From Candidatus Helarchaeota archaeon (lineage in GTDB: Archaea > Asgardarchaeota > Lokiarchaeia > Helarchaeales > RDOG01): a stretch of DNA of 41,064 bases. The DNA is taken from NCBI GenBank assembly GCA_029838215.1, contig JALGVI010000097.1, positions 1-41,064 of the forward strand. The letters are read 5' to 3'. Every line of letters begins with the position of its first letter. The first letter of the stretch is position 1. The translations under genes and the position numbers were made by a program. Below the pieces are notes generated by a model, which was not told where the DNA came from, did no database searches, and saw nothing but the letters and a program-made list of their open reading frames with translations. Below, one piece after another: positions 1,202 through 39,153 of the stretch.

Positions 1202-1280
1202 CAATAAATTTGGAGTGATTTGAGTACGAAGGAGAGTTTGAATTGTTTTTTTTTGAATATAAGAATTGGGAGCATTCAAG

Positions 1281-2303
1281 ATGACGTACGTGTTTGACAA
1301 ACCAGGAACTTATATTGGCAAGAAGGCGGCCACGTTGAATATCAAGCTTCCTGATAAGACAAGAAGAGAAATTGCAGTCAAGAAAATTGGTTGTTTGATA
1401 ATTTGTACTAGAGTTCAGTTGAGTTATGATGCCTTAAAGCTTCTTGCGTTACACGGAATACCGGTAATATTCGTGAGTGGTAATCGACCGATTGCGATTT
1501 TTCATCCTTTTGCGTTACATGGAACTGTTTTAACTAGACGTGCTCAATTTTTAGCGTATTTAGATGAAAGGGGTTCATATTTAGCAAAAATGTTTATTAA
1601 GGCTTCGTTGGAGAACCGTACTCGTTTTTTAAAAAGGATTCGTCGAACTAGAAAAGTTTTACATCCTGAGATTGCAGAGAAGATTGAAAAATGTATCGAA
1701 AAAATCAAGTCAAAACAATTTGAAATTGATGGATTAAACGGAATTATTGATGACATTCGATGGCAATTAATGGGATTGGAAGGAATTGCGGCCAAACAAT
1801 ATTTTGACGGTTTTCGAAGTGTTTTTCCTGATGATCTTGAGTTCAAAGGGCGGGTGAAGCGTCCACCAAGGGATCCTGTTAATTCATGCTTGAGTTTTGG
1901 TTATACCATGTTATATGGGGACGTGCTTGTTGGCATTGCGGCAGCGGGTTTGGAGCCATTTGCAGGATTCATTCACGCGGATCGGTCTGGAAAGCCATCT
2001 TTGGCACTGGATTTAATTGAGGAATTCAGGCAAGTCACGGTGGATCGTTTGGTCCTGAAGCTTTTTTCAAGAAAAAAGTTAGGCAAGGATGATTTTGCTT
2101 TAGAAGAATCTCGATGCTTGTTTACAGACAGGGGAAAGGAATTGTTCATCAAGGAGTACAATGACATGATAGATGAGGGCATACTCATGCCTGATGGAAA
2201 ACAAGTTTCTTTCAAGAAATTAATTATTAAGCAGGCACGTTTATTGACCAGATATTTGGTTGGTAAGTCTCCGACTTATGATCCTTTCTTGATACCGTGG
2301 TGA
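1281..2303 (+). CDS. cas1: CRISPR-associated integrase Cas1
   Basis: Motifs LMGLEGIAAKQYF, RPPRDPVNSCLSFGYTMLY, GFIH..KPSLALDLIEEFR. ATG at 1281 is preferred over TTG at 1266. Confidence 0.97.
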   Translation: MTYVFDKPGTYIGKKAATLNIKLPDKTRREIAVKKIGCLIICTRVQLSYDALKLLALHGIPVIFVSGNRPIAIFHPFALHGTVLTRRAQFLAYLDERGSYLAKMFIKASLENRTRFLKRIRRTRKVLHPEIAEKIEKCIEKIKSKQFEIDGLNGIIDDIRWQLMGLEGIAAKQYFDGFRSVFPDDLEFKGRVKRPPRDPVNSCLSFGYTMLYGDVLVGIAAAGLEPFAGFIHADRSGKPSLALDLIEEFRQVTVDRLVLKLFSRKKLGKDDFALEESRCLFTDRGKELFIKEYNDMIDEGILMPDGKQVSFKKLIIKQARLLTRYLVGKSPTYDPFLIPW

Positions 2304-2307
2304 TGTC

Positions 2308-2610
2308 GTGAAGCATCTCGTGATATATGATGTTCCCAAGGAGTTTAATAAAGTCAGAACCAAGATTGCCCAGTGCTGTAAGAATCACGGATTGGAACGA
2401 ATTGAGTATTCCGTGTTTTTAGGAGACATGAGTCCAAATGAAGCGGAAACGCTTGCGATGGAATTGGAGGACCTGACACGAGAAATTAGTGCCGACATCC
2501 GCATTTTTCCGATTTGTCAGAATTGTCTGAAAAAATCCATCATCGTGAGGATCGGGGCGTTGAGTTGGGATTTTCAGGAGTCAATTAAGGGAAGTGTTGA
2601 ATTCGTATGA
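2308..2610 (+). CDS. cas2: CRISPR-associated protein Cas2
   Basis: LVIYDV N-terminus, ERIEYSVFLG, 100 aa, GGTGA RBS before the GTG start, directly after cas1. Confidence 0.95.
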   Translation: MKHLVIYDVPKEFNKVRTKIAQCCKNHGLERIEYSVFLGDMSPNEAETLAMELEDLTREISADIRIFPICQNCLKKSIIVRIGALSWDFQESIKGSVEFV

Positions 2611-3206
2611 GTGGCATGAAGCACCATCCGCTCGAGAAAATCGTTTTTACAGCAGAAGATGTTCGTCAATATACGTATTGTCCCCGAATCATTTACTTCC
2701 GATACGTGATGAACGTGAACATGCCCCCGAGAACATATAAGATGGAAAAGGGAATCGAGAAGCACGAAAAGGACGTTCGGAATTTTAAAAGTCCGCCAGA
2801 ATCTTCACCACAAAAATATGCCAATATTTATCTCAAGGATGAGCGAGTGGGATTAATTGCGTTATTGGATTTTTTGGAAGTGGATGGGGACGAAGCCATC
2901 CCAATAGATTTGAAAACGGGCAAGCGTTATCAAGAACCCATCTCGGATCATCATTTCGCCCAGTTGGTAGCACAGGCGCTTCTCGTAGAAGCCTGCATGG
3001 GACAGATTGTTCGTCGAGTTCGTGTTGATTACACGCGCCTGAAAAAAGTCCTTGAGCGGCAGGTTGATGTTGACGATAAGTTTCGTGTCTTGCGTGATTT
3101 AGAAAGAATGCAGGAAATTGTAGAAACGGAAATCATCCCTTCACCAACGAACATCGAAGGAAAATGCACGGACTGTGAATTTTGGAGGTATTGCCTTCGA
3201 GTTTGA
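2607..3206 (+). CDS. cas4: CRISPR-associated exonuclease Cas4
   Basis: YCPR N-terminal Fe-S Cys, RecB-like D..IDLKTG, QLVAQ, C-terminal CxxCx5C (CTDCEFWRYC). ATGA overlap with cas2. Confidence 0.95.
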   Translation: MSGMKHHPLEKIVFTAEDVRQYTYCPRIIYFRYVMNVNMPPRTYKMEKGIEKHEKDVRNFKSPPESSPQKYANIYLKDERVGLIALLDFLEVDGDEAIPIDLKTGKRYQEPISDHHFAQLVAQALLVEACMGQIVRRVRVDYTRLKKVLERQVDVDDKFRVLRDLERMQEIVETEIIPSPTNIEGKCTDCEFWRYCLRV

Positions 3207-3312
3207 ATCCAATGTTTTAATTTAAAATTGATATAAATAAATCACAGATTTGGATAATCTAGAAGATATTGGAAAAAAATCAAAATTGAAGGAATAAAAT
3301 AAAAAATGGATA

Positions 3313-5793
3313 TCATTCGGTCAGTCCAAACCCTTCTTGATATGGAACGTTCAAAATGTATATGTTGTAATCGTTATCATATTCTATTTTTTTTTCTTTC
3401 ATATACTTAAAAAGACGTCTTTTTGAAATCGAAACAAGCAAATTCGTAGCAATTAGAAATTGTCTGTTATCAATTAAATCTTTAAATTCTTTGTGATATT
3501 GTATTGGTAGGACTTCAATGGAATCAAACAATTCTTCAAATTCTTTAAAGATTTTTTTATCAGATGTAAAAGGTCGAAGATAAGTAACTATGAAATCAAA
3601 GAAGTGCTTTTTCGTTGATTCAAAAATTTTCTGTTCTTTTTCTTCATAACCGTTTTTATATAAGAGTTGAACTAAATTATTAAAATCAGCGTTACTCAGC
3701 GGAAAAAAATCGGGATTTTCATCTTTATACACTTGACGAATATTTTGAATTTTTTCTTTAAGTAATTCAAGGGTTCTTTTCAATCTTTCTTTTGAATAAA
3801 TGGTTTTATCTTTAAGGGAATCTTGTGTAAAAATATGGATTTTTCCCAATGATTTGTTCTTTCCTTTTCGATTAACTCTTCCAGCACGTTGAATTAAGGC
3901 ATCAATAGGAGCAATCTCGAAGTAGCCAGTCATAAAATCTAAGTCTAAAGAGACTTCAATAGCTTGAGTTCCAACCAAAATATTATATTGTTGTAAATGT
4001 TCTTCGACTGCTATTCGATCTTTTTGAGTTAGACGCCCATGAATCAAGCCAATTTCAGCTTTATTCGGTTTTTTAGAGAACCCAAAAATTTTTTTTTCAA
4101 TGAGTTTGAGGTAAACAAACTGAGCTGTTTTTACAGAATTGCAAACAATCAAGATGCTTTTTTTATTTTTGACATCATTTTTTATCATTGAAAGAAAATT
4201 GGGATTCAATCTACCTTCAGCATCAAAATTGACCATACTACCTTCAATTAATCGAAATTCGTGTTTAATTTGTGTTTTTAGTTTTTCTTCAGGGCATTTT
4301 AGAATTTGAGGATTGTCTAATACATCTTCAAATTCCTTTTGAAGAAACGTAGGCATTGTTGCTGTCATTATAAAAAATTGAGTGTGAATGGACTTTTTTA
4401 AAAATTTTATTATTACAATTATTTGGGCAATAGTTCGGGGATCATATACATGAATTTCGTCAAATATGCATTTTGCCCCAACCAATTCAACCAATATCTT
4501 TTCAAATCCTTTATATCCGAAAAAAAGTTTAATAATTTGAAATGGTGTGGTAACCTTTATTGGAATATAAAGACTTCTACTTAATTGAGTTGTATTTTTG
4601 ACTTTTCTTAAAATTTCTATATTTGAAAGGTCTTCTTCACTTTTAGAATAAAAATTGAATAAATATTGTTGAGATTTATGATGAAGAATCCCAACATTCT
4701 CACTTCCAAAATACTCCATTAATCTTGAATGCATTTTATTGCAACTTGCAGTATATGGAAGAATAAAAAAGATACGTTCACCCCTCTTAGTTGATAAGTT
4801 ATAATCTGCCCAAAATAAAGCACTTTCCGTTTTTCCAGAAGCAGTCGGTGCGAATAAAAAACAATCACCTTTCATTTTAGAACATTTTTCTTGTATCGTT
4901 TTAAGAGTCCAATTTGGATGATTTTTATGAAAAAGTTCAGTAAATGGATGACATAAGACCGGTATTTCTGAACAGTTGGCGGAAGCCAAATGGTCAGCAG
5001 ACAGAAATATGCCACGAAACAGAATCGCCAAAACAAATTTTGTGAAATGGTTTTGATTTATCAAATCAAGGGAATTGGAAAGAATTGAAGTACTCCAATC
5101 CAATTTCAATTTTTGAGTAAATTTTTTCCATGGAATAACTAAGGATTCATAATATCTTGGAATTTGATTGATAGTGAAATTCTTTATCGATTCAATTGAA
5201 TTGTCTGTTAATCCATTAAATTGAATATTATCAATTCTTAGATACTTTCTCTTTGAATGTATGACTGATGAAAATTTTTTAATAATTTCAGTATTATGAA
5301 AAAACTCCTGCCACTTTGTAAATAAACGTTCAAGAGCATAAGAATTCTTAGTGTTGTAATTCTCCATCAAATAGTCAATTGTCTTGTGATTTGTTACTAA
5401 CGATAGAAATGTAAGATAAAGACTATATTTAACGTTTATTTCTATATTGTCTAACTTAATATTTGAAAATAAGTTCGGTTCCAGCGACAGAAAGTATGTT
5501 ATGCTCAAAATTTCATGTCTATAATTCCAGCGCTCTTTAGTATTTAATAGGAGACTTTGAAATCCTGGAGCAATTTTTCCAAAATCATGAAAAATTAGAC
5601 CTAATCTTAAACATTTAAAAAGTTCAATTTGCTCATCTAAAAAACAGAAAATTTCGTTTGATGTTATAATCGATTTGAGAACATTTAAGGACTTATTTGT
5701 ATGCTGTGCTAAGGTTTCTCCTGTACTTTTCGCTAGAATTTTCTCCTCGAAATGATTAGGAAAAAAATGTTTAAATTTTGAATTACTCATCAT
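3313..5793 (-). CDS. cas3: Type I Cas3 (HD nuclease fused to SF2 helicase)
   Basis: N-terminal H..HDFGK..FQ and RHEILS, plus SADHLAS (HD domain). APTASGKTES (motif I), DEIH (II), TAT (III), TQAIEVSLDLD (V), QRAGRVNR (VI). Confidence 0.97.
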   Translation of the reverse strand: MMSNSKFKHFFPNHFEEKILAKSTGETLAQHTNKSLNVLKSIITSNEIFCFLDEQIELFKCLRLGLIFHDFGKIAPGFQSLLLNTKERWNYRHEILSITYFLSLEPNLFSNIKLDNIEINVKYSLYLTFLSLVTNHKTIDYLMENYNTKNSYALERLFTKWQEFFHNTEIIKKFSSVIHSKRKYLRIDNIQFNGLTDNSIESIKNFTINQIPRYYESLVIPWKKFTQKLKLDWSTSILSNSLDLINQNHFTKFVLAILFRGIFLSADHLASANCSEIPVLCHPFTELFHKNHPNWTLKTIQEKCSKMKGDCFLFAPTASGKTESALFWADYNLSTKRGERIFFILPYTASCNKMHSRLMEYFGSENVGILHHKSQQYLFNFYSKSEEDLSNIEILRKVKNTTQLSRSLYIPIKVTTPFQIIKLFFGYKGFEKILVELVGAKCIFDEIHVYDPRTIAQIIVIIKFLKKSIHTQFFIMTATMPTFLQKEFEDVLDNPQILKCPEEKLKTQIKHEFRLIEGSMVNFDAEGRLNPNFLSMIKNDVKNKKSILIVCNSVKTAQFVYLKLIEKKIFGFSKKPNKAEIGLIHGRLTQKDRIAVEEHLQQYNILVGTQAIEVSLDLDFMTGYFEIAPIDALIQRAGRVNRKGKNKSLGKIHIFTQDSLKDKTIYSKERLKRTLELLKEKIQNIRQVYKDENPDFFPLSNADFNNLVQLLYKNGYEEKEQKIFESTKKHFFDFIVTYLRPFTSDKKIFKEFEELFDSIEVLPIQYHKEFKDLIDNRQFLIATNLLVSISKRRLFKYMKEKKIEYDNDYNIYILNVPYQEGFGLTE

Positions 5794-5797
5794 TGGT

Positions 5798-6646
5798 CTA
5801 TATCCATTTCATATTTTTCTTTTTTCTATTCATTTCTATTTGTACTTTTCTCTCCTGTTCTTTGTTTTGGAGATTAAACACATGATCTTGTTGTTTTCGA
5901 CATACTTCTTCTAAAAATGTCATAAAAAAATATTCATAAGATTCAATGATCTTATTGTAATCAATTTCGTCATCCCCTATTTCATCTTCATCTATATTGG
6001 ATTCCCAATATGTTATGACATCTACTTCGGTTGCTTCGTCATATGATGAACATCTAAAAAGAGAGTCAGAAAAATCATTCCAGAAAAATAAATTTGCATT
6101 TTGTTTCATTAATTCGATCAATTTATGATTTCGTAAGAAAAATTGCTTTCCTTCACATTTAATTGCCAAGATTGGTTCGGATGTTTTTAAATCAAGTAGA
6201 AATTCACTTACATTTGAGAGAAATTCCTTAAATAAATCTTCAATTTTTTCTTCTTTATGCTTTAAGAAAAAAGTTTGACTTTTCATAAAAGGAATTAAGT
6301 TCTGCATTTTTTCTTGTATCATTTTTAGAGTTGTTTTAAGGAAATAGTTAATTTGAGAAAATTCATCATCATATCCTTTAAGATTGTGAAGAAATCTACT
6401 TCTATATTCGTAAATTTTTTTGAATTCTTTCTCTTTAAATGTTTTAATTTCATTCTTACTTAAAAAAATTGAACAAAATTGGTCTAATTGTCTTTTAAAT
6501 CCCTTCGTATTCTGTGGTGTCATTAATAAGGCTTCGATCATACAAACTAACACGGTCCCTTTCAACGAGGCACTTTCGATTTTTTCAAGATCTTCTACTA
6601 TAATGGAGGAATGATTTAATCGACTCTCAAGACTTTCATAATTCAT
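5798..6646 (-). CDS. HEPN-domain protein (ApeA-like HEPN signature) with an acidic C-terminal domain of unknown function, inserted between cas5 and cas3
   Basis: ATG at 6646 gives 282 aa; the ORF-track start at 6766 overlaps cas5. Shows MIEALL (E38) and KKIYEYRSRFLH (R82-x4-H87; codons 6403-6401 and 6388-6386), the E...Y-x2-RS-x2-hH HEPN signature. 37 nt after the cas5 stop and 4 nt before cas3. Confidence 0.75.
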   Translation of the reverse strand: MNYESLESRLNHSSIIVEDLEKIESASLKGTVLVCMIEALLMTPQNTKGFKRQLDQFCSIFLSKNEIKTFKEKEFKKIYEYRSRFLHNLKGYDDEFSQINYFLKTTLKMIQEKMQNLIPFMKSQTFFLKHKEEKIEDLFKEFLSNVSEFLLDLKTSEPILAIKCEGKQFFLRNHKLIELMKQNANLFFWNDFSDSLFRCSSYDEATEVDVITYWESNIDEDEIGDDEIDYNKIIESYEYFFMTFLEEVCRKQQDHVFNLQNKEQERKVQIEMNRKKKNMKWI

Positions 6647-6683
6647 CTTAAATTCCCATTTATTTAAAATGAAATTAAAAAAA

Positions 6684-7328
6684 TTAAGAGAACATAAAAA
6701 AACAATTCCCAGTTTCAAGTTCTTGAAAAAAGTTTGTGTCTTGTGTTTCAATTGAATTCTCAACATTTACATAATAAAAAATGTCGGAATCAATTAGAGT
6801 TCTGGGAATTTTGCTTTTAATATAAATTGGAAGGCGATAAATGGCACCACGTTCAATTTTATGATTTTTTGGGATAATTGAATCTTTTACAATGCCCTTT
6901 TTGATGTTTTTGGCTTCAACAATTTTAATTGTTCTTACAAAGGCCAAATCTGTTGATCTTCCAAGCAATAAAGGATAAAAAGGTTTTTTGAAATATTTTT
7001 GAAATTCTATAGGAGATAGGTATAATTGCAATGACGTATCGAATAGAAATTCCCTACGATGAATGTTTGTTTTATGATTTCCCTTTGTATCGAATTCGTA
7101 TATTCGTTCAAGGTCAAGTGTCTTGGCACGATATTTAAAAATGTAGCCAAATTCCACATCATTTTGTTCTACAATGTCACCTTTCGCCGCGGATAATAAC
7201 CCGTATATTGTTGACGGAGGAGGAATTGGATACGTGAGTTGCACGCCAGAAATGAATAGTGGTTGTCGAAAGCTTGCAGTCCAAGCTGATATTTCTATTT
7301 TTAGGAGTTCTATTTTTATTTCCTCCAA
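6684..7328 (-). CDS. cas5: Type I-B Cas5
   Basis: ISAWTASFRQP..TYPIPPPSTIYGLLSAAKG and LLGRSTDL are Cas5 (Tneap-type) motifs. Start is uncertain: TTG at 7328, or ATA at 7313 lying 7 nt after a GGAGGA RBS. The ORF-track start overlaps cas7. Confidence 0.93.
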   Translation of the reverse strand: MEEIKIELLKIEISAWTASFRQPLFISGVQLTYPIPPPSTIYGLLSAAKGDIVEQNDVEFGYIFKYRAKTLDLERIYEFDTKGNHKTNIHRREFLFDTSLQLYLSPIEFQKYFKKPFYPLLLGRSTDLAFVRTIKIVEAKNIKKGIVKDSIIPKNHKIERGAIYRLPIYIKSKIPRTLIDSDIFYYVNVENSIETQDTNFFQELETGNCFFMFS

Positions 7329-7350
7329 TGAAATTCTTGAGATTTTCGGT

Positions 7351-8418
7351 TTAAGATTTTTTATTGTTTTTAGATTTGTATATTTCGTTAAGAAAAGCTT
7401 CGACGACCTGTTTTGGGGTTCCAAGATATAAGATATTTTCTTCATCGGATTTGGATGACTCTAACTGTTTTTTTAGTTCTTCTAGATTATTTCTTAAATT
7501 ACCGAGAAAGTTATGCCTTATTCCAATGTAGATTTTTGAAAGAAATTCTTCTTTATAATCCTCAATAATTTCTTTTAATGCTTCAATTGAAAAATTTGGG
7601 ACACCATCATTATCATACATTAGATTTGCAAGTACGTGGTTTCCACCATTAAATAAGGCGAGGACAAGTAATTGTGGAGTAACATCGGTCAAATGAAGTG
7701 TAGATTTTGCACCTCCGAATAGGAACGGCAGTGCTTCAATTGTTTCTTTTATTCTTTTTTGTTTTAAGTCTTCGCTGATTTTAACGGTAGATATGCCGCC
7801 ATTATTTTCAATTATTAGATTTCCGTTTTTTTCATACGACTCTATTGATGATTCATTTAAATTATGAAATCCTGCTCTCGTTTCAGTTGTAAAATAACCA
7901 ACAGCATCCATGTCCAAAGAAAAAATTCCTTTTAAAGTAGCCATATAGAATTGATGTTCATAAGGAACGGGATCACCTTGTTGACGTGCCATTACACCAA
8001 AGTCATTTACAATCCGTACTGGAGACACAGAAACTAGTGGCGAATTTTTTAGAGGAGAAATTCTTGTAACAGTTACGTTTTTTGACTTTTTTTTACCTCC
8101 TTTTCCGTCAACCATTATTTTCTTTGCTCGCATATATCCAAACACATCATCATCAGGATATTTCACAGGATCGGCTTCAGTGTAAGCTATTTTAGTTTCC
8201 CGAGTTATTGGAGACATCTCCCAATTGTACTTGGATTCTAAAGTCTGACGCCACCAATATCTTATAGCTTGTGCAGAAACATACGGATGTGTGCCAGTTT
8301 TTGTTCTAATTTTCTTTACAGCAACAGTATTGTCAGCCATTTCGCCGGGCTCATCGCCAGCGTTGTTTAATGCCGCCGCATCAACACCAATTGCCATTAA
8401 ACCCATAATTACGTTCAT
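7351..8418 (-). CDS. cas7: Type I-B Cas7 (Cst2/DevR family)
   Basis: AAALNNAG, YVSAQAIRYWWR, YPDDDVFGYM, TRISPLKNS, PYEHQFY. Start abuts the cas8 stop (TAAATG) with a GGAGG RBS. Confidence 0.95.
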   Translation of the reverse strand: MNVIMGLMAIGVDAAALNNAGDEPGEMADNTVAVKKIRTKTGTHPYVSAQAIRYWWRQTLESKYNWEMSPITRETKIAYTEADPVKYPDDDVFGYMRAKKIMVDGKGGKKKSKNVTVTRISPLKNSPLVSVSPVRIVNDFGVMARQQGDPVPYEHQFYMATLKGIFSLDMDAVGYFTTETRAGFHNLNESSIESYEKNGNLIIENNGGISTVKISEDLKQKRIKETIEALPFLFGGAKSTLHLTDVTPQLLVLALFNGGNHVLANLMYDNDGVPNFSIEALKEIIEDYKEEFLSKIYIGIRHNFLGNLRNNLEELKKQLESSKSDEENILYLGTPKQVVEAFLNEIYKSKNNKKS

Positions 8419-9777
8419 TTACCATTCCTCCTTTTCATCTTCGTCTTCGTCTATAATTTCGTCTTTGATTTCATCAACAAATTGTTTGAAGAATTTAAAA
8501 CCATGTTCATATATACTAAAAAGAAGAAAATCTCTAGCTTCTTTCCATCCATAAGGCTCAGATTCCGGAAATAGGTATGTAGCAACATCATCAACCTTAA
8601 AAAGCGGTTCATTGAAGTATATGAGACTTTCTTTTTCAAGTTTGATAAGAATCTTACGAAGTTGTTCTGAGTTACGACATTTCTCTATTTGAAAAAGCAG
8701 TTTTTTACTTTCTTTTTTCTTCATTAGTTCAACGATTAGATTGCCAATATTTTTTATATATTCCAAAGTTTCTATTTTCAATTTTAACACCACCTCTGCG
8801 TATAGTTGGAATAATTGCCAACTCACATTGTTTTTATGATTTTTTCTGTCTAAAAAATAATAAAGAATTGTTTTTTCTTGAATTAATCTTTGATAGATAG
8901 GATTCGGACGAATTTTTATGATTTCATCGGGAGCTTTATCTTTATCACGTGAAAATCTTTTCGTTTTACCATGTACGAATTTTTGCCATTCCCCATTAAG
9001 CCCTGCTTGCTTTATATAAGCAAGAAAACGAAATATAGGATGAGGTATGTCAATAAATTTGACTTTAGGGCTTTGCAAAAAATTAGTAAAAAAGTAAAGT
9101 CGAATAAATGGATTTTCTTCACTCCAATTTTCATCATATTCATTAATAATTCGAGATGCGATGTAAAAAATGAAATTGGTTCCATTCTTATAACCAAAAT
9201 AATTAATACCTTGAAATGAATTATTGCTTAATTGCAAGCGGATTGATTTCATTACTTCTTCAGTCCATGCTTTCATCACAAGATCTGAATCGGAATGAAG
9301 TAAAACTAGCTCATCAACACATCTACTCATGACGAGTGTTGCAAATTGAACCGAGAATAAACAGCTTCCACAAATTTTTATTCCATTATCCCAGTTTGGA
9401 TAAAAATTTACCATTTTTAATGAACCCGTTAAAGGAAATTCGGCTCTACTAGAGGAGAAAGAACCCTTGCGATTGTTGCATCCCCAACAACTCTTTGTAG
9501 GTGTAGGTGCAGAACAATCATTAATTAAATTTTCTAAAAATTTTGAATAAGCACCACGACGATCTTTTATAGAAAAGTTAGCTATTTTCGAATTTGGTAA
9601 AATTTGAGTCAATGAACCTCTCCAGGAATCATCGGAAAGAATCTTTACGAGTGTTTCAGAGGAATTTTTTAAATCAGATTTATTTAGGTCTTTTAAATCA
9701 TTTTTTTTCGTTAAATTGAGTAAAACATAGATTCCGGCATCAATAAATGGGTTTCCAGTAATGTCAAACAGATTCAT
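8419..9777 (-). CDS. cas8b1: Type I-B large subunit Cas8b1/Cst1 (CxxC-CxxC family)
   Basis: TGNPFIDAG N-terminal motif, CWGC and CGSC, NFY motif, acidic tail, first gene of the cas8-7-5-3 operon. ATG at 9777 is preferred over TTG at 9816. Confidence 0.85.
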   Translation of the reverse strand: MNLFDITGNPFIDAGIYVLLNLTKKNDLKDLNKSDLKNSSETLVKILSDDSWRGSLTQILPNSKIANFSIKDRRGAYSKFLENLINDCSAPTPTKSCWGCNNRKGSFSSSRAEFPLTGSLKMVNFYPNWDNGIKICGSCLFSVQFATLVMSRCVDELVLLHSDSDLVMKAWTEEVMKSIRLQLSNNSFQGINYFGYKNGTNFIFYIASRIINEYDENWSEENPFIRLYFFTNFLQSPKVKFIDIPHPIFRFLAYIKQAGLNGEWQKFVHGKTKRFSRDKDKAPDEIIKIRPNPIYQRLIQEKTILYYFLDRKNHKNNVSWQLFQLYAEVVLKLKIETLEYIKNIGNLIVELMKKKESKKLLFQIEKCRNSEQLRKILIKLEKESLIYFNEPLFKVDDVATYLFPESEPYGWKEARDFLLFSIYEHGFKFFKQFVDEIKDEIIDEDEDEKEEW

Positions 9778-9901
9778 ATAGTTATCCACTTCCGAATTTA
9801 AAAAATTCCGTTTCAATTTATCTTTTTTTATAAATTCATAGGAAGTTATTAATCCCTTCCAATCAAAATGATATTGAAGATTTTAGTATAAAAGTTTTTT
9901 C

Positions 9902-9934
9902 CATGCATAAGATTAAAATTTAATTATAGACATG
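9902..9934. promoter_or_regulatory. Imperfect 33-bp palindrome between the divergent cas8 and csa3-like promoters (candidate operator)
   Basis: CATGCATAAGATTAAAATTTAATTATAGACATG: 12 of 16 pairs are complementary around the central A. A minus-strand AAAAACTTTTATAC BRE/TATA-like motif lies just to the left (about 9887-9900). Confidence 0.4.
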
Positions 9935-9942
9935 ATCATTTG

Positions 9943-10634
9943 ATGAAACGCATAACGCAAGTCGTGTTGGTGGGTCACACGCGAGTTCGTTTATTGGAGA
10001 GCATCAAGCATTTGAGAATGAGGGTTTGGATGGTGAGTCCCGGGTTCGTGAGGTTGCGTCGGGTTTGGAGAGTATTTTTCAGGGGTTGATGAGGGTTGAG
10101 CGTTTGTTGGTGAACAAGGAGGACGTGTTTGATGCGTGTCGAGTCGTGTTGGAGAAGTTGCATGATGAGGTTAAGTTGGGTAATGAGGTGTTGATCAACG
10201 TTTCGGGGTCGTTGAGGCAGATGGCGATTGCGTGTTATATTGCGGCGTTGGTTTCGGGGACGCCGATTTACAGTGTCATTCCGGAGTATGGGGATGATTT
10301 TCAGGAGATAGGGGTGAAGGAGATCCATTCGATTCCGCATTTTCCGATAACGGAGATATCCGCGAACAGCTTGAGGATTTTGGAGATATTGAATGAGAAG
10401 GGTGCGGTGCGTTCGATAGATCAGTTGATGGTGTTGCTTGATTCGGAGTCGGAGAAGGAGGAGTATCACAGGTTTCGCGGGCGGATCAATTATTACTTGA
10501 AGGAGTTGGATGCTGTCAAGTTCATAGATAGGGAGCGTAGGGGTAAGAGCGTGAGGCTGCGTTTGACGGATTCGGGGCGTATTTTTATTTTTGGGCATCG
10601 CATTCGGGCTTTGAAGGCGGAGAAGAAGGGTTAG
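9943..10634 (+). pseudogene. csa3: Csa3-like CARF plus winged-HTH transcriptional regulator, frameshifted near the 5' end
   Basis: ATG at 9943 gives MKRITQVVLVGHTRVRLLESIKH (CARF strand 1 and helix). The rest is in another frame (..ENEGLDGESRVREVA..INVSGSLRQMAIACYIAA..; wHTH INYYLKELDAVKFIDRERRGKSVRLRLTDSG). The shift falls at about 10010-10020. Confidence 0.75.
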
Positions 10635-10650
10635 GCTTCGGGTTCGTGTT

Positions 10651-11406
10651 TTATTCTTGTTTTTCGATGGATGAGAATTCCAGCGGCATGTATCGGATGA
10701 TTCCTGCGCCTGCGGTTCTGTTTCCGCCGACGTTTGAGTATTCGGCGAATCGCAGCAGGATGTCTATCCAGTGGTTGTATGAGTTTTCGGGGTTTTTGAC
10801 GATGTATGTAGCCCATCCGGTGCACCCTGCTTCGGGTTGTGGTTTTCCGATGTTTATTTGCCTTGTTTGAAGTTTGAAGCTTGATACGGAGATGTTGTTT
10901 ATGGCCCATTTTAGGAAAGCGTCCTTGTCGATCTTGCAGCCGACGGGAGCGAATGCGTTCCATGTATTGGATATGTTTGCGAACAGGTAGTCTGGGGTTG
11001 GGAATCGGTGCTTGAAGTTGCGTCCTTTCATGTTGAAGTATGTTGGGCGGAGGAATTTGACGGTGAATTTTCGTATTTTCCGCGTGGTTTTCAGGAAGTG
11101 GCTGAATTGTAGTTTTTCGAGGTTTATTCGTGCGAGTATTAGTGGGGTTTCTTGTATTTCGATGGACATGTCTTGGGTGGAGATGACTTGTTTTAGGATG
11201 TCGGCGGAGAGGTCTTCCTTGAACACGGTAAGGTAAAACGTGACGGCAGGGTCGTTTCGGTCTTGCCTTACGGATATGGCATACGGGCGGATTTGGTTAT
11301 TGGATTCGTGCAGGTCTTCGACCAATTTTGAGTCGAATTCGGACAGGAATTGCATGAAGAACGCGCGGAATGCGTGCGGGGATAGGTATCGTCTATCGCC
11401 GTCCAT
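10651..11406 (-). CDS. cas6: CRISPR RNA processing endoribonuclease Cas6
   Basis: FLRPTYF, FPTPDYLF..WNAF and the C-terminal Gly-rich loop NVGGNRTAGAG. First ATG is at 11406, but Cas6-like sequence (LTYRFTFDL) extends to 11445 behind a GGAGG RBS. The 376-aa ORF-track start is too far upstream. Confidence 0.92.
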   Translation of the reverse strand: MDGDRRYLSPHAFRAFFMQFLSEFDSKLVEDLHESNNQIRPYAISVRQDRNDPAVTFYLTVFKEDLSADILKQVISTQDMSIEIQETPLILARINLEKLQFSHFLKTTRKIRKFTVKFLRPTYFNMKGRNFKHRFPTPDYLFANISNTWNAFAPVGCKIDKDAFLKWAINNISVSSFKLQTRQINIGKPQPEAGCTGWATYIVKNPENSYNHWIDILLRFAEYSNVGGNRTAGAGIIRYMPLEFSSIEKQE

Positions 11407-11716
11407 GTTTTTCTTAATCAGATCAAACGTAAAGCGATACGTGAGATTCGCCTCCCATTTTTCATTGCCATGAAAATTTGCTTGTTGTAGCTGTATTGCT
11501 GGACGTGAATATAAATTATTTCCTTGCCGTGCGTGGATTTTGGAGTTTTGCGCTTCTTGTTCATGGGTTTGTTTTTTTTGTGATGCCGTGTATTTAGTCA
11601 TTGAGTGATTTAGATTTAGGATGTTTTTTTGTAGGATTGGTGTTTGGCGTGAATTTTTTTGGAGTGTCGTGGAGGTCTTGTTTTTGACGAAGTCTCGGCG
11701 CAGGAAGGATAAGAAC

Positions 11717-11884
11717 ATGGGTCGTCCCGAGTGGGTGGCGACGGATGAGAGGTGTGAGGAGTGTGGTGGTGAGATGGTCAAGACGAGTCGTTATACGTAT
11801 ACGTGTACGGTTTGTGGTTTGATGCAGGTGCGGCACCCGATGAAGAAGGGGGCGATGTCGAATGAAAACAAGAACATCGAGTGA
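11717..11884 (+). CDS. Small zinc-ribbon protein (55 aa)
   Basis: MGRPEWVATDERCEECGGEMVKTSRYTYTCTVCGLMQVR: CxxC-x13-CxxC ribbon. ATG at 11717 is preceded by purine-rich GGAAGGA. Confidence 0.65.
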   Translation: MGRPEWVATDERCEECGGEMVKTSRYTYTCTVCGLMQVRHPMKKGAMSNENKNIE

Positions 11885-11975
11885 AATAGTCGCTGTCGTT
11901 TGGATATTGGTTTTCTTTTTACAAGGGAATGATTTATCAGGTTTTTAATCTTGCCAGCTTCAAATATATAGGACA

Positions 11976-12641
11976 TTGACCAAATTAAAGTATGATTTTA
12001 ACAATTACACAAAGGGAATAAATTTGTCAGAATGGAATCAAAAATTGGATGCTTTAACGGTTGCTCAATTAAAAGAGATATGCAAGAAATATAAAATCAA
12101 AGGTTATTCCAAGAAAAAGAAGAAGCCGTTAATCAAGATGGTCTTGGACTTCATTAAAAACAATGATAAAGCGCAGGAGTTCATTAAACGAAAATATGCG
12201 GGAAAATTTACGAATCAAGATCTTTCTACAGGGCATTCTGCGGTTTCTGTGGATGCAGGTGGAGTAACGCCAGAGATAATTATTCAGATGGAGCATAGGT
12301 TATCCTCTGTAGAAAAACAAGTAGCAGAAATAAAAAGTTTTATCGAGAAATTGCAGGCACCTAAAATAAAGGCATCGAGGCAGGATATTTCCGATGATTC
12401 TTTTTATAGGATTGTTTCAGAGGCATATCACTCTATTGGAAATAAAATGGGGTCTTTGGTTACAATACCCGAATTGACCAGAAAGATATCCAAGCGATTG
12501 AAATGGGATCAACAGAGAATTCATGATGGATTATATCAATTATATATTGATGGTAAGGTTGATTTGCAGCCCGGAAAGGTGAAGGAAGGGTCTCCAATGC
12601 GAATTGAAGGAAATACTTTTTATTGGTTTACGTTTAGGTGA
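11976..12641 (+). CDS. Protein with an N-terminal HeH (SAP/Rho-N-like) DNA-binding motif, a coiled segment and a C-terminal winged helix
   Basis: LDALTVAQLKEICKKYKIKGYSKKKKKPLIKMV is a Rho_N/SAP-like helix-extension-helix. C-terminal VTIPELTRKI..IHDGLYQLYIDGKVDLQPG..YWFTF is wHTH-like. GTGA overlap with the next gene. Confidence 0.65.
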   Translation: MTKLKYDFNNYTKGINLSEWNQKLDALTVAQLKEICKKYKIKGYSKKKKKPLIKMVLDFIKNNDKAQEFIKRKYAGKFTNQDLSTGHSAVSVDAGGVTPEIIIQMEHRLSSVEKQVAEIKSFIEKLQAPKIKASRQDISDDSFYRIVSEAYHSIGNKMGSLVTIPELTRKISKRLKWDQQRIHDGLYQLYIDGKVDLQPGKVKEGSPMRIEGNTFYWFTFR

Positions 12642-14887
12642 CTGAATTGTTCAAATTTAAAAATCTTGAAGAAGTCGAGTCAATCCTCCTAGATCCTGAG
12701 CAGCCAAACCCTTTTCCAGCACCTCCTGCAGCAGTAAATTTTCATAATAATCCGCCTCAATTTATTTGTGGTCGAGCCGAGGAAATCCAAATAATCAAAA
12801 AGGAAATCAGGAATTCGATTAAATTCAAGGAGCCAAAATTAATCAAGGTTTTTGGAAAACAGGGGATCGGTAAATCCACGTTGGTATGTTGGGTTTATAA
12901 AGAAATAATGGAAAATTCAGAGATCATTCATCCCATGGTTTTTCTGAATGCAAGCGGACAACCCGAGGGATTTCATTTCGTGAATTTTTATTGTCAAATT
13001 TTTTCACAATTGGAACAAGATCAAGTTTTGGAGAAACTGGCATATCACAGCATTACAAGATTCATTCAATTGCTAATTGAGAAGGGGGGCAAGCTTGAAA
13101 ACAGTGTATTTAAAGATACACCGATTACAAATGACATATTAGATAAAATAAAGAAAGATCCCAATGAATTAAAATCTTTTCTTGCAGATCAAGGCACTCT
13201 CGTGATCAAGATTATTGACTTGTATAAGAAAGTCATCAATTTTATTAGGGCAGACATTCCCGTTAATCCCGAGTTTTTAGTAACATTGTGGAATGCGTTT
13301 TCTTTTACAGCACGTGCATTTGATGCCCTCAACGCAATAAAGGGCATTGGAGAATTTGAAGGATTTCATGTCCGAATTGCCAGCGATGCCAAGCAGGCGT
13401 TCATCGATTTTATAAATCTGTGTCGGTGGTCTTTTGGCGATGTTTCAGTCATAATTGTAATTGACCATTTGGAAAGTTGCACGAACGAGAATAAATCGGA
13501 CAATTTCTCTAATTTGTTTTCGCTTCTACTCGAGTTGCGGCAATTGACGCATCTTTGCATAATTCTTTCGGGCACCATGGATGCTTTTGTTGCTCTTGAT
13601 GAGGTTCTTCAGGAAGATCAGAAACTGCAGCTTGATAATTGGAGTCGCATGATAACGCTTAGCTCATTGGAGCCCGAGTTGGTCGTGGACGTAATAAAGG
13701 CTTATCTGAGCCGGTTTTGGAGTCAACAGAACCATGAACCGCCGCATGAATATTCTTTTTTTCCCTTTGGTCCCAATAGTCTCATGTATCTTTATGACAC
13801 GACAAACAAGGATTTGCGGAGGACACTCATTCGACTGCATGAAATAATTAATTCATTTAGAAAAAAGCAAGAAATTGAAGGAGTCGAATCATTTTTCGAT
13901 GGAATGAGAAAATTCCGAACCAGAAAAGACATTACTTTGACAGTTCTCGAGCAAAAATACTTTGTTGAAGAGATCTTGAAGTCCGAGACTCAGGATAAAG
14001 AGCGTTCAACGAAGGTTGAGATGGCGGTCTTTAACTTATTTAAAATTGCAAAATCAAAATACGAGTTCATAAGTGATGTCAAACACGAACCTAAGATAAA
14101 AAAGTTGAAACCTGATGTTTTTGTAGAGCTTTTTGGCAATCTTGGCTTGGATAAAATCAGAAAACTCGTTTTCGAGGTAAAAATATATCGTAAGGGAGAT
14201 GAGATTCCTAAATCAGAGGTGACTAAAACGTTATCCCTGTTAAATGATCATCTCGTGGATTACGTGCATTGGGTTACTAACAAGCCACTTTCATTGGCAA
14301 AATATAACTTGAATGTCAACCTTCATGAATATTTGGGTCGGACAAAACCTTTAGAACATCGAGAATTGGCATATGCTTCTCTTGTCACGCATTTCAATGA
14401 GATTTTCGGTAGGGAGCCAACACCAGATGAAGCAATTGAGCTTTTAGAAAAAATTGGAATTGATATTTTAACAATAAGCGAAGAAGTAAAGGCGAGAAGT
14501 TCGCTTTCCGTTGTCAAGAAGAAGCCGAAAAGAATTCCGACTTTAATTGATTTCAAGCCGTCAGAACCCACCGGGATCGAACAGGGCATCGCCGTGAAAA
14601 AACCCGTGCCACCACCAGTCCCTACGCCCGTGATTACAAGCAAGAAACAGGTTCCCGTTCAAGTTATTGAAACGGATAAAAATGAGATTGCATCCAAGAT
14701 TAAAAAAGTCATCAAAAAGCACTCCAATAAGACACGGGTTTATATCAAAACGGTTTTTAAAGATTTATCGGAGAAACAGGGGTTGCGTGTGAAAGAAGAT
14801 GAAAAAGACGATGTTTTTCAAGTCATACACCAAGTCGTGAATGAATTGGGATATCGCATGACCGCTTCCACGATTTCATTTAAATGA
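12638..14887 (+). CDS. P-loop ATPase (STAND/ORC-CDC6/BREX-ATPase-like) fused to a PD-(D/E)xK nuclease-like domain and a small C-terminal domain
   Basis: NPF..FICGRAEE, Walker A GKQGIGKS, Walker B IIVIDHLE. Later KPDVFVE..LVFEVK (PD..ExK). Pro-rich linker KKPVPPPVPTPV precedes a short terminal domain. Confidence 0.75.
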   Translation: MTELFKFKNLEEVESILLDPEQPNPFPAPPAAVNFHNNPPQFICGRAEEIQIIKKEIRNSIKFKEPKLIKVFGKQGIGKSTLVCWVYKEIMENSEIIHPMVFLNASGQPEGFHFVNFYCQIFSQLEQDQVLEKLAYHSITRFIQLLIEKGGKLENSVFKDTPITNDILDKIKKDPNELKSFLADQGTLVIKIIDLYKKVINFIRADIPVNPEFLVTLWNAFSFTARAFDALNAIKGIGEFEGFHVRIASDAKQAFIDFINLCRWSFGDVSVIIVIDHLESCTNENKSDNFSNLFSLLLELRQLTHLCIILSGTMDAFVALDEVLQEDQKLQLDNWSRMITLSSLEPELVVDVIKAYLSRFWSQQNHEPPHEYSFFPFGPNSLMYLYDTTNKDLRRTLIRLHEIINSFRKKQEIEGVESFFDGMRKFRTRKDITLTVLEQKYFVEEILKSETQDKERSTKVEMAVFNLFKIAKSKYEFISDVKHEPKIKKLKPDVFVELFGNLGLDKIRKLVFEVKIYRKGDEIPKSEVTKTLSLLNDHLVDYVHWVTNKPLSLAKYNLNVNLHEYLGRTKPLEHRELAYASLVTHFNEIFGREPTPDEAIELLEKIGIDILTISEEVKARSSLSVVKKKPKRIPTLIDFKPSEPTGIEQGIAVKKPVPPPVPTPVITSKKQVPVQVIETDKNEIASKIKKVIKKHSNKTRVYIKTVFKDLSEKQGLRVKEDEKDDVFQVIHQVVNELGYRMTASTISFK

Positions 14888-23030: not shown

Positions 23031-23618
23031 GTGAAGTATTTGCATTTTACACACCAAGACATCCACGTGCAATGTCATGAGTTGGCAATGAAGGTGAAAA
23101 AGGATGGTTTTTACCCTGACGTGATCGTTGCGGTTGCAAGAGGGGGTTTTCCTGTTGCCAGATTGCTTGCGGATTTCCTGCGCGTGGTAGAATTACAGAG
23201 CGTTCAAATTGAGTTATACAAGAATATTTCGAAAATGTTGGATTCTCCCAACATCATCGCTTTAAACCTCCAGAATCTCGAAGGGCGCAAGGTATTGGTG
23301 TGTGATGACATCGTGGACACGGGAACGACGATCAAGCTCGTGATCGATCATCTCAAGCAGATCGAGAACGTGGATTATAAAATCGTGACCTTGCACGTCA
23401 AGGAATCGGCGGATTTCGAGCCGGATTATTTTCATTCCAAAGTTACGGAGTGGGTCATTTATCCTTGGGAATTGCATGAAACGATAAGCGTGTTTCTTGA
23501 AGAAGGCATGAAGCAATCGAAATCGACGAAGCAGGTACTTGAAGAGTTGCGACAGATCGGCTTGGAGCCCGACTTTCTTAAGAATTACGAAACATGGATG
23601 AAAGAAACTCCTGAATGA
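23031..23618 (+). CDS. Type I phosphoribosyltransferase (purine salvage, HGPRT/XGPRT-like)
   Basis: VAVARGG and PRPP-binding motif VLVCDDIVDTGTT. C-terminal WVIYPWE. Confidence 0.9.
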   Translation: MKYLHFTHQDIHVQCHELAMKVKKDGFYPDVIVAVARGGFPVARLLADFLRVVELQSVQIELYKNISKMLDSPNIIALNLQNLEGRKVLVCDDIVDTGTTIKLVIDHLKQIENVDYKIVTLHVKESADFEPDYFHSKVTEWVIYPWELHETISVFLEEGMKQSKSTKQVLEELRQIGLEPDFLKNYETWMKETPE

Positions 23619-26049: not shown

Positions 26050-26053
26050 GAAA

Positions 26054-28177
26054 TCATCCTTTTAAATTTTTAACAGCATCTTGAATCACGTTGATATCTT
26101 CGGCATCCAATCCGAAGCATTCATGAATTAATTTATCGAGTGCTTGTCTTGAATTGCTGCATTTTTCTGAATCGAGTGGAGTTCCTGCTCGAATTTTAGT
26201 GATTAATAGATCGACTTGTTTCGTGATTTGAGACTGTAGTTTAGAATCAGGGGGGAAAATGGGCATCATCTTCACGTGTTCAATCAGTATGCGCGGGAAA
26301 ATCTCTTTTTCTTGGAATAGCTTGAGATAAAGATAATTGAACAGCGTGGAATTAAGGAGTGCAAGGATGTTTTTCAATGAGTACCTGTTGTTGGTGAGAG
26401 TGATGTTATATATTGTTTGAAGCGTGCTCATCTTGCCTTCTTCGTCGATGCTTGCTTGGAGTTTTTTCCCTAATTGGCGCAAGACGATCTTCGGCGTGAA
26501 GTAGAGCGATTTTTTTTGCAATGACTTTTTGTCCACGTATTTGAATGGAGGTCTGATGATGTATGGTTGTACGTTGTTTCCACTGAGAATGGGAACGTCA
26601 GAGGGATGTTCGGGCGCATCTTTAAGTAGCGGAGCCGTTTTTCCGAGTTCTTCCCCCCGATGGATCTCGATTACTTGAGATAATGGCGTGTTTCCATTTA
26701 ACAGCTTCATTATTAGTTCCTGTTCTTGTCTTGTAAGAAATGGAAAAGAGTTCTTATATGTTCGTTGAAAAAATGCCTGAGCGATCCCGAGGCGTTTTCC
26801 CGAATCTTGTTGAAGCTGAAGCAATGAATCGGATTTGGTGAAAATGAATTCCCCACTTGCAGGGTGTTTACTTTTTTGCAGGATTAAAATGATGTTTGCG
26901 ACTTTGGGATCCTCAAAGACGCCTTTAACTTGGTGAATTTCTAGGATATTTGTTTCATCCAGGACCATTTTTCGAATGGATGCAAAGTTACTTCGAATTA
27001 AAAACGATTCGGGTATGATATAACCGAGATGACCTTTTTGTTTTAGGAGTTCAATACCCCGTTCCAGAAACAACGAATACAGGTCAAATTGTCCACGAGC
27101 GGTTTTAAAAGACTTCCGAAAGTATTCTTTTTCGATGTCATGAATTTCTTTCGAACTCAAGTATGGCGGGTTTGCCATCAACACGTCGAATCCACCTGCT
27201 TCGATGATTTCGGGGCATGCCAGTTCGAGCGATTTTCCGGTTTTTTCGTGCCTTTGTATTTCATTATTTTTTCGCAGGGCATCCCCAACGTGAAAATTCG
27301 TGAGGTCGGGCATCTTGTTGCAGCGTTCATGGAGTAATAGTAAAATAAGACGAATCTTGAATATTTCGACGGAGATATCTTGGATGTCCATTCCGTACAG
27401 GTTATTCTGGATCACTTCAAGTAGAAATTCCTGTCTTGACACGGCGTGAGAATGGGCGACGTGAGTTTCGTAAAATTCCAACAGAACTCGCAAAGCATTC
27501 ATGAGAAATGCTCCGGAACCCATTGATGGGTCAAGGATCTTGATGTTTAATTTATTTTCATTGGAGCAATAACGTGCTAAAATGTCATCAGATAATAATT
27601 TTTTACAAATCCAGTCCGTGATGATGGTCGGTGTATAGAATGAGCCTGTCTTGTCGGTTTTTTTTCGGGATTTATTTCGAATGCTTTTTTCCAAGAACTG
27701 CTCCAATATCTTGGGCGTGATCACGTCGTTGTTAGCTTCAAATTCGTTTAATGACCACTTGAATTGCTCTAACAATTTGAATAATGTCCGCTTTTCACGT
27801 GCGTGAAGCCAAACGTCATCGGGCATGAAGAGCGTCTTTTCGAATTTTGAACACTTGAACAGTGAGCTTCGGAAAAAAAAGGCGTTTTCATCTTTGGAGT
27901 TCAGGGGAAGTTTCACGCCATCAGAAAACAGGATCATTTTAGGGAGTAGATGGTCTTGAAAGAAATTTTCATAATTATTGCGCGTGAACTGGATTTGAAG
28001 AGCCATTTTTGGAATGAATCCGGATCGTTCGAGGAATTTCAATACCAAGATGCGAGATAACAAGATTTGGGGGAAATTTGATGGTGATTCTTGGTCCGTG
28101 GTGGACATGAAGGTTTCGATTTTTTCGTGAAATTCGGTCAGGATGTTCAAGAGAATTGAATTTTTATTTGAGATCAT
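26054..28177 (-). CDS. Second N6-adenine DNA methyltransferase, Eco57I/TaqI-like with TRD and no evident nuclease domain
   Basis: GSFYTP, ILDPSMGSGAFL, LYGMDI, FDVLMANPPY, DLYSLFLERG, PKIVLRQL..LALLNSTL. Confidence 0.9.
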   Translation of the reverse strand: MISNKNSILLNILTEFHEKIETFMSTTDQESPSNFPQILLSRILVLKFLERSGFIPKMALQIQFTRNNYENFFQDHLLPKMILFSDGVKLPLNSKDENAFFFRSSLFKCSKFEKTLFMPDDVWLHAREKRTLFKLLEQFKWSLNEFEANNDVITPKILEQFLEKSIRNKSRKKTDKTGSFYTPTIITDWICKKLLSDDILARYCSNENKLNIKILDPSMGSGAFLMNALRVLLEFYETHVAHSHAVSRQEFLLEVIQNNLYGMDIQDISVEIFKIRLILLLLHERCNKMPDLTNFHVGDALRKNNEIQRHEKTGKSLELACPEIIEAGGFDVLMANPPYLSSKEIHDIEKEYFRKSFKTARGQFDLYSLFLERGIELLKQKGHLGYIIPESFLIRSNFASIRKMVLDETNILEIHQVKGVFEDPKVANIILILQKSKHPASGEFIFTKSDSLLQLQQDSGKRLGIAQAFFQRTYKNSFPFLTRQEQELIMKLLNGNTPLSQVIEIHRGEELGKTAPLLKDAPEHPSDVPILSGNNVQPYIIRPPFKYVDKKSLQKKSLYFTPKIVLRQLGKKLQASIDEEGKMSTLQTIYNITLTNNRYSLKNILALLNSTLFNYLYLKLFQEKEIFPRILIEHVKMMPIFPPDSKLQSQITKQVDLLITKIRAGTPLDSEKCSNSRQALDKLIHECFGLDAEDINVIQDAVKNLKG

Positions 28178-35166: not shown

Positions 35167-35182
35167 TAATTGGTGAAATAGA

Positions 35183-37241: not shown

Positions 37242-37308
37242 TCCCATAATTTAATTCTTTGGTATTTCGCGATTAACTCTTTTAAATTTCAGTTGAAGAG
37301 GGAATAGT

Positions 37309-39084: not shown

Positions 39085-39153
39085 AAAAAATATAAAATAT
39101 AGGCATTCTTTTCAAGAAGTCGATTAACACGATTTCATTCTTCATTAAAGAAC

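Follow-up and report, generated by a model that had tools for sequence, protein, structure and literature searches.

A gene with a putative HEPN-type domain inside a type I-B Cascade-Cas3 operon of a Helarchaeota archaeon

Contig JALGVI010000097.1 of a Candidatus Helarchaeota archaeon is one 41-kb piece of a 3.6-Mb archaeal metagenome-assembled genome (GC 38.6%), and it was analysed here over its whole length of 41,064 nucleotides (hereafter, the window). Near one end it carries a CRISPR-Cas locus in which cas1-cas2-cas4, on the plus strand, face a convergent block, cas3-X-cas5-cas7-cas8b1, on the minus strand (3313-9816), followed by a csa3-like and a cas6-like gene (Table 1). All four interference proteins (Cas8b1, Cas7, Cas5t and Cas3) exceed their NCBIfam cut-offs and assign the locus to type I-B, of the Cst/Tneap kind. 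The subject of this study is X, the gene between cas5 and cas3, whose product (P0001) is an orphan protein with an N-terminal domain that we read as a probable, divergent HEPN domain.

The positions and gaps given for X in the initial annotation are confirmed: its ATG, at 6646, follows the stop codon of cas5 by 37 nt, and its TAG (5798-5800) is separated from the ATG of cas3 by four nucleotides (ACCA). The open reading frame (ORF) of X is a real gene and not a chance frame, the probability of 282 open codons at its composition being about 7e-13 and the remaining five frames over the same interval containing 11-37 stops each. A longer frame of 322 codons can be drawn from a start at 6766, within cas5, but its use appears unlikely because the only homologue of X aligns its Met1 with the Met1 of the 6646 start.

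In base composition, X (GC 27.3%; GC at third codon positions, GC3, 23.7%) cannot be told from cas3, cas5, cas7 and cas8, whose GC3 values are 22.5-26.8%, and the similarity to an AT-rich cassette noted at first annotation therefore stands. The genes on either side differ, with GC3 of 36-50% in cas1, cas2 and cas4 and of 55-66% in csa3 and cas6, such that the cas locus (1266-11781) is a mosaic with a cassette of 22-27% wedged between them; the interference cassette carries no cas6 of its own. Because its GC3 is distinct, the cassette is a compositionally foreign module of which X forms part: X was acquired together with the AT-rich cas8b1-cas7-cas5-X-cas3 cassette, and the pattern suggests that the interference module was replaced by horizontal transfer. 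Given the close gaps, the equal GC3 and the lack of any terminator-like hairpin on the minus strand within the operon, X is probably co-transcribed with the interference cassette, as had been proposed, and translationally coupled to cas3. (A scan for sigma-70 promoters was discarded as not applicable, the host being an archaeon.) The same locus is present on two Joint Genome Institute (JGI) metagenome contigs, with 1 mismatch in 6.7 kb and with identical copies of X in the same context.

Table 1. Position of gene X, of the features of its product, and of the surrounding cas genes in the window
Feature	Position	Strand	Basis
Gene X (P0001), 282 aa + TAG stop	5798..6646	-	ORF and translation; orphan CRISPR-linked protein
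All-helical N-terminal domain, HEPN-like, residues ~20-123	6278..6589	-	predicted helices; hhalign to HepT
E38, a conserved Glu within predicted helix 26-41	6533..6535	-	invariant in P0001 and P0002; aligned to Glu of the HepT 'GEa' block
Polar loop PQNxKGF following helix 26-41, residues 44-50, conserved	6497..6517	-	identical in P0001 and P0002 except x
R82-S-R-F-L-H87, candidate HEPN Rx4H motif (RSxFxHN in both members)	6386..6403	-	end of predicted helix 75-87; aligned to HepT RNxxxH
Residues 203-230, acidic patch (pI ~4), then basic C-terminal helix (pI ~10)	5957..6040	-	sequence (see text)
cas3 (HD + helicase, 826 aa)	3313..5793	-	TIGR01587, 1.4e-72, plus HD domain; ATG 4 nt past X stop
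cas5t (~214 aa by the gene calls on sibling contigs L008 and L009)	6684..7328	-	TIGR01895, 5.5e-41
cas7 (Cst2/DevR type)	7351..8418	-	TIGR02585, 8.4e-58
cas8b1 (Cst1)	8419..9816	-	TIGR01908, 2.8e-35
Adaptation module cas1-cas2-cas4	1266..3206	+	convergent on cas3; GC higher
Csa3/HFX_2341-like regulator gene	10026..10634	+	weak NCBIfam matches; GC3 66%
cas6-like gene, outside the AT-rich cassette	10651..11781	-	TIGR01877, 1.5e-10, under curated cut-off

X belongs to a very small family. Scans of X, of its two halves and of its relative against Pfam, NCBIfam and PHROG assigned no family and gave chance-level matches only (CDC14, NigD_C, MINAR1_N, IZUMO). A word-indexed search of 5.8 billion proteins returned X itself and nothing else, and an exhaustive phmmer search of 1.84 billion (1.84e9) cluster representatives, run with no length limit, recovered a single relative, P0002, a protein of 272 aa (E = 4.9e-6) whose identity to X is 26% overall, rising to 36% in the first 84 residues. 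Repeating the word-indexed search with a profile of both sequences added nothing beyond P0002. No further relatives were found in genome, metagenome and viral contig collections, in plasmids and phages (searched by tblastn), or in the genomes of 60 relatives of the host, and sequence searches of the PDB, with a profile and with both N-terminal domains, yielded only a leucine-rich repeat 'repebody' and other chance matches.

The case for a HEPN domain begins with the pattern of conservation between these two proteins. The N-terminal part of X is basic (isoelectric point, pI, 8.8 for residues 1-125), with predicted helices at residues 26-41, 47-61, 64-73, 75-87 and 95-113/123, and the blocks best conserved between X and P0002 (26-36% identity) are E38 within C-x2-E-x-LL, the PQNxKGF loop, and Y-x2-RSxFxHN. 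The counterpart of the last motif in P0002 reads R-S-V-F-F-H, such that a polar residue follows the Arg in both members. An Rx4H motif alone is weak evidence, in that 15% of shuffled versions of X contain one; it rises above chance because the same motif is conserved in the sole relative. In both AlphaFold2 runs the motif closes helix 75-87 and is succeeded by a loop (88-94) and a long helix, with E38 in an earlier helix, although at the confidence of these models (predicted local distance difference test, pLDDT, 42-53) their secondary structure alone is usable. A motif at the end of a helix, with a loop and then a long helix after it, is as described for helix 3 of HEPN domains (PMC3710099, section 7).

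A comparison was also made with HepT (PF01934), for which we aligned 26 HepT proteins from related genomes and compared profiles by hhalign. The two-sequence profile of X matched residues 36-93 to HepT 36-98 with a score of 17.3, in a register that sets E38 on the HepT Glu and R82, S83 and H87 on R-N-x3-H; P0001 alone scored 19.45, over residues 60-122. Only 2.3% of column shuffles reached 17.3 (2.4% when the motif was held in place), and all 51 natural segments of equal composition stayed below it, with a maximum of 15.7. In the same set-up, HepT scored just 13.2 against PF05168, both being bona fide HEPN families, and the method is therefore insensitive rather than permissive; comparators from PF05168 were uninformative.

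Two further comparisons point in the same direction. The feature neighbours of P0001 in the ESM-Atlas include an ApeA-like HEPN cluster, at rank 3, together with MauJ, Csm6_HEPN and a number of unnamed clusters. An independent search with the N-terminus of P0002 listed named family sets that are all of HEPN type (HEPN_Apea, MauJ, YopA_C, Csm6_HEPN, RnaseLS and RiboL-PSP). The Csx1 model of PADLOC also gave a match over the motif of X, a marginal one (E = 0.013, residues 59-115).

Several observations weigh against this assignment. None of the HEPN models of Pfam, NCBIfam, PHROG and PADLOC matches X significantly, and the support from the HepT alignment amounts to just p ~0.02; P0002 alone aligns to HepT in the same register, but with a score of 11.3, which is the null level. 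E38 lies outside an Ex3[KR] context, and the Atlas neighbour scores (0.78-0.86) fall under the 0.9 confidence line of that tool. The AlphaFold2 models are poor (pLDDT 42 from the single sequence and 53 from a two-sequence alignment of the N-terminal domain), and fold searches by Foldseek, VIA-align and Atlas shape, all run with these low-confidence models, recovered no HEPN structure: Foldseek found nothing in the PDB at E <= 0.001, the Atlas shape search returned major facilitator superfamily transporters, which are spurious, and VIA-align of the full-length model returned generic helical hairpins only.

Taking both sides together, we consider HEPN homology of X to be moderately supported by the sequence comparisons, and a HEPN fold of its N-terminal domain to be reasonably probable. 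The HEPN-likeness proposed in the initial annotation is thus supported by the conserved Glu, the conserved RSxFxHN, their register with HepT and the HEPN-type neighbours; no HEPN hidden Markov model (HMM) gave a significant match.

The C-terminal half of X is of a different character. The acidic stretch DEDEIGDDEIDY, like E38 and R82-S-R-F-L-H87, is present in the translation of X, and the acidic C-terminal region described at first annotation proves to be common to the sole relative: P0002 has an acidic stretch at the equivalent place, and the C-terminal halves of the two proteins align with z = 4.2 against shuffles. Autoinhibition and nucleic-acid mimicry are guesses as to its role. The C-terminus of Cas8b1 also ends in an acidic tail, DEIKDEIIDEDEDEKEEW, which resembles the patch of X in character, although BLASTP shows no homology between the proteins. 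An origin of X as a duplicated Cas8 C-terminus was ruled out, there being no similarity of either X or P0002 to Cas8b1 by BLASTP.

Weak Cas11-like signals in X compete with the HEPN reading. X could instead be a non-catalytic helical subunit or regulator, either a small Cas11-like subunit extended by a C-terminal domain or a regulator of Cas3 whose acidic patch mimics nucleic acid, in which event the R..H pair would be structural. Three results that speak for such a subunit also count against a HEPN ribonuclease (RNase). First, the Csm2 model of PADLOC (Cas11 family) marginally matches residues 104-158, with E = 0.004-0.018. Second, hhalign pairs residues 127-156 with Cmr5 at 37% identity over 30 aa, with a score of 18.7 that was reached by 1 of 150 shuffles and by 0 of 51 natural segments. 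Third, when the N-terminal model is searched by VIA-align, about ten of the 50 best rows are Cas11-type chains (Cas11d, Cmr5, the C-terminus of Cas10d and the Cas11 region of Cas7-11). There is also a precedent for combining a nuclease with Cas11, in variant I-E3 (PMC12669027). However, the Csm2 and Cmr5 signals are absent in P0002 and do not recur with the full-length model, and related loci with a Cas8b1 of the same size do without X; for these reasons we retain a Cas11-like or other non-catalytic role as an alternative but hold it to be unlikely.

The contig of P0002 (7.9 kb) carries cas8-cas7-cas5-cas3. Its gene is convergent to cas3, on the other strand and 72 nt away on the downstream side, behind a gene of 482 aa. 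The neighbouring Cas3, 38% identical to the window Cas3 and one of its three closest relatives, has clade-specific insertions in common with the window protein. Across this clade (3313-5793 compared with P0004 and P0005), Cas3 is 80-100 aa longer than a typical Cas3 of Cst-type I-B systems and has common insertions in the HD-helicase linker and the C-terminal domain. At the locus of the closest Cas3 (L004), a CRISPR array directly follows cas3; what lies upstream is beyond the end of the contig.

Other related systems lack the gene. In five related Cst-type I-B loci (L005, L072, L073 and the contigs of P0011 and P0007), cas5 abuts or overlaps cas3 with no gene in between, from which we conclude that X is a lineage-specific insertion. 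Their cas8b1 genes, where complete, encode 456-464 aa as compared with 465 aa here (the cas8b1 of the P0007 contig is cut by the contig end), and the Cas8b1 of the window is itself full length, matching positions 3-475 of the 477 in the PADLOC Cas8b model PDLC01387; we conclude that X does not stand in for a missing part of Cas8b1. Conservation of the cas5-X-cas3 arrangement, a question raised in the initial annotation, is not borne out, in that the relative lies downstream of cas3 in convergent orientation and the five loci are without the gene, and the exact slot of X is thus not conserved. Adjacency to cas3 nevertheless holds for 2/2 known members. The same annotation had named homologues lying mainly outside cas loci as the mark of a passenger gene, and the searches above found no family member outside a cas locus: both of the two members in total adjoin a I-B cas3.

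On these grounds we tentatively favour, at a little less than an even chance, the view that X is an ancillary HEPN RNase that has no CARF domain, is tied to Cas3 or Cascade, and is a rare accessory of one clade of Cst-type I-B systems. What speaks for it is that both known members lie directly beside a I-B cas3 and that their Cas3 proteins are close relatives. According to this proposal, residues ~20-123, which form the basic and entirely helical N-terminal part, most likely constitute a divergent HEPN domain with a predicted active site of E38, R82 and H87, which would make X a metal-independent RNase, and the C-terminal half (~130-282) would regulate or tether it. X might then serve a DNA-targeting I-B system as an ancillary RNase arm, arresting growth or degrading transcripts when Cascade or Cas3 is engaged or failing, by analogy with Csm6 and Csx1 of type III but without CARF or cyclic oligoadenylate (cOA) signalling. 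The RNase activity, its trigger and its coupling to Cas3 are inferred only. Two features of the distribution weigh against functional coupling: it rests on two loci, in the second of which the gene is convergent to cas3 and outside the operon, and five related I-B loci work without any X-like gene.

A more specific version of this proposal can be formulated by analogy with ApeA, which is activated by deoxydinucleotides. X could be a collateral RNase coupled to Cas3 that gives type I-B an abortive-infection (Abi) arm of the type III/VI kind without cOA signalling, its HEPN domain being kept inactive either through the acidic C-terminal domain or through association with Cas3, and switched on by engagement of Cas3 or by the short DNA fragments that Cas3 releases. 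We regard this scheme, in all its parts, as improbable. The predicted complex of X with residues 286-826 of Cas3 has a score of 0.05, which counts neither for nor against binding.

It is a widespread observation that toxin-antitoxin and Abi genes nest in archaeal cas cassettes without being wired into them. X might accordingly be an autonomous single-gene toxin or Abi defence gene, of HEPN type or not, that is nested in the operon, borrows its transcription and is mechanistically unconnected with either Cascade or Cas3. The variable position of the family would fit this view, with the relative convergent and downstream of cas3 and with five related I-B loci in which cas5 abuts cas3. Other defence genes also abut related I-B operons; in L072 (1090-2950), an AbiEi/AbiEii toxin-antitoxin pair lies against cas8b1 and overlaps its start, an instance of defence genes nesting at a Cst-type I-B operon. 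Moreover, the contig as a whole is a defence island: it carries two methyltransferase genes of Eco57I/TaqI_C type as well as a second AT-rich ATPase cluster. But a merely nested toxin would not readily account for the finding that both members stand beside a cas3 of the same Cas3 clade, despite identities of 26-38%, and that none was found elsewhere, nor for the 4-nt coupling of X to cas3 and a composition identical to that of the cassette; and no gene for a partner antitoxin fits into the gaps of 37 nt and 4 nt. We judge an unlinked, autonomous toxin, the strongest of the alternatives, to be somewhat unlikely.

A divergent McrA-like gene on another contig of the genome (C27, 59711-61297, locus L007; an ORF of 590 aa with 274 bits against TIGR03256, whose cut-off is 768 bits) may encode an enzyme of the alkyl-coenzyme M reductase type, and the genome also carries an archaeal-type EngB; together these two genes identify the host as an archaeon. 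Within the window, two large adjacent genes (23578-28177; 823 and 707 aa) with Eco57I, N6_Mtase and TaqI_C domains resemble type IIG-like or bacteriophage exclusion (BREX) PglX-like methyltransferases, and it is this tandem pair that marks the contig as a defence island. A second AT-rich island (33021-40775, GC 23-30%) holds five plus-strand genes, encoding an AAA ATPase (248 aa), a 656-aa P-loop/coiled-coil protein and three ORFs without family (351, 591 and 320 aa), and may be another horizontally acquired defence module. With respect to cas5t, its ORF could be extended to 7445, and the TIGR01895 match covers residues 46-231 of this long ORF.

There is no CRISPR array within the 41-kb window, whose end falls just short of one: on the sibling contig L008 (JGI 3300033141), which comes from the same population, positions 10173-14278, beyond cas1 and a DUF2797 gene, hold an array with 56 or more repeats, GTAGCAGAAATAAGCCTCATGTGAGAGGATTGAAAT. 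The repeats of this array end in ATTGAAAT. A second, similar array, of about 33 near-identical repeats, is located at the end of genome contig C52 (37252-39534), with no adjoining cas genes. Because the sibling contig continues into the long array and a similar array exists on C52, the CRISPR system looks complete and active. A role for X as a substitute for Cas6 was ruled out, given the cas6-like gene nearby and the usual ATTGAAAT handle of the repeat.

Among CRISPR systems, type I is the commonest, and its action is thought to be confined to the destruction of DNA by Cas3; the types that sense RNA, III and VI, have HEPN RNases as their hallmark. If a CARF-less HEPN RNase does operate from a Cascade-Cas3 operon, type I would have a second output that is either RNA-directed or suicidal, and its trigger would be new because the Cas10/cOA pathway is absent here. 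We found no account of a comparable HEPN component of type I-B in the 2025 CRISPR-Cas classification (PMC12669027), in the 2013 HEPN survey or in the literature searched for such operons. The rarity of the family, with two members, and the putative status of the fold limit what can be claimed for X as a CRISPR-linked HEPN accessory.

Among the known systems closest to X are HepT and other minimal HEPN toxins (PF01934), of which structures such as PDB 5YEP and 7AE8 are available (cited in bioRxiv 10.64898/2026.01.26.701840). Like these, X has a (predicted) helical domain of about 100 aa, with a Glu in an early helix and R-[polar]-x3-H at the end of a later one. Unlike them, it gives no significant match to an HMM, it lacks a neighbouring gene for an MNT antitoxin, it carries Ser in place of Asn/Asp after the Arg, and it possesses an extra C-terminal domain of 150 aa with an acidic patch and sits in a I-B interference operon.

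ApeA (HEPN_Apea, PF18739), under whose name X was originally annotated, resembles it in that HEPN_Apea clusters lie near both X and P0002 in language-model space. ApeA is a single-protein anti-phage nuclease that cuts tRNA anticodons; its activation proceeds by way of a ligand-binding pocket, the ligand of Ec2ApeA being a 5'-phosphorylated deoxydinucleotide (bioRxiv 10.64898/2026.01.26.701840). Activation by small products of DNA breakdown is a possible model for a trigger of X that is coupled to Cas3. The two architectures differ: in ApeA the split HEPN domain is C-terminal (335-583 in Ec2ApeA), preceded by an N-terminal and a Mid domain, and decamers or dodecamers are formed by most homologues (same source), whereas X has 282 aa in all, with its motif (82-87) at the N-terminus. 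Nor is there a match of X to PF18739 at E <= 10 or to the ApeA family of PADLOC. The genome of the window itself has no PF18739 match at 1e-5; HEPN_Apea was not found among 301 sampled genomes of the phylum, nor the Csx1 model of PADLOC among 151 sampled genomes of the class. Placement of X in the ApeA family is thus not supported, and X should not be filed there: the ApeA-type clusters are its nearest neighbours in language-model space and nothing more.

Csm6 and Csx1, the CARF-HEPN proteins of type III systems that also occur near some type I loci, offer the example of a HEPN RNase beside class 1 effector genes, and their likeness to X extends to the marginal PADLOC match over the motif region and to Csm6_HEPN among the Atlas neighbours. 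In the 2013 survey, the HEPN families linked to CRISPR in types I and III are described as CARF-HEPN proteins (PMC3710099). In contrast, X has no CARF or SAVED sensor, in keeping with the initial annotation (no CARF, Csx1 or Csm6 family of Pfam or NCBIfam matches it), and type I-B has no Cas10 to produce cOA. Without CARF, Cas10 and cOA, the route by which X is activated must differ from that of Csm6 and Csx1.

Toxic elements that are tied to the integrity of Cascade are known from type I cas clusters in the form of CreTA, which occurs in type I-B, and CrePA; these toxins safeguard Cascade or provide a back-up against anti-CRISPRs (PMC12737573). If X were the toxin of such a guard or addiction circuit, it would be repressed or neutralised while Cascade is intact and set free once Cascade is lost or anti-CRISPRs block it, and its location inside the Cascade-Cas3 operon would suit this role. 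But CreTA and CrePA employ a CRISPR RNA-like antitoxin and a promoter that Cascade represses, neither of which is detectable around X: the best match to a creA-like repeat in the window is 22/36, as compared with 21-23 in shuffled sequence (although very degenerate repeats could escape), and the 37-nt gap has no room for a separate promoter and an RNA antitoxin. Furthermore, co-transcription of X with the Cascade genes would preclude its repression by Cascade at a promoter of its own. Because its RNA elements are lacking, a circuit of this kind is very unlikely.

A final parallel to the proposed ancillary RNase is variant I-E3, which keeps Cas3 and has a PD-(D/E)xK nuclease joined to Cas11 (PMC12669027). 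As proposed for X, an extra nuclease is present in a type I effector operon together with an apparently active Cas3. The nuclease superfamily and the subtype differ between the two, and the Cas11 identity in X is putative; were X to combine a HEPN domain with a Cas11-like one, this fusion would echo variant I-E3.

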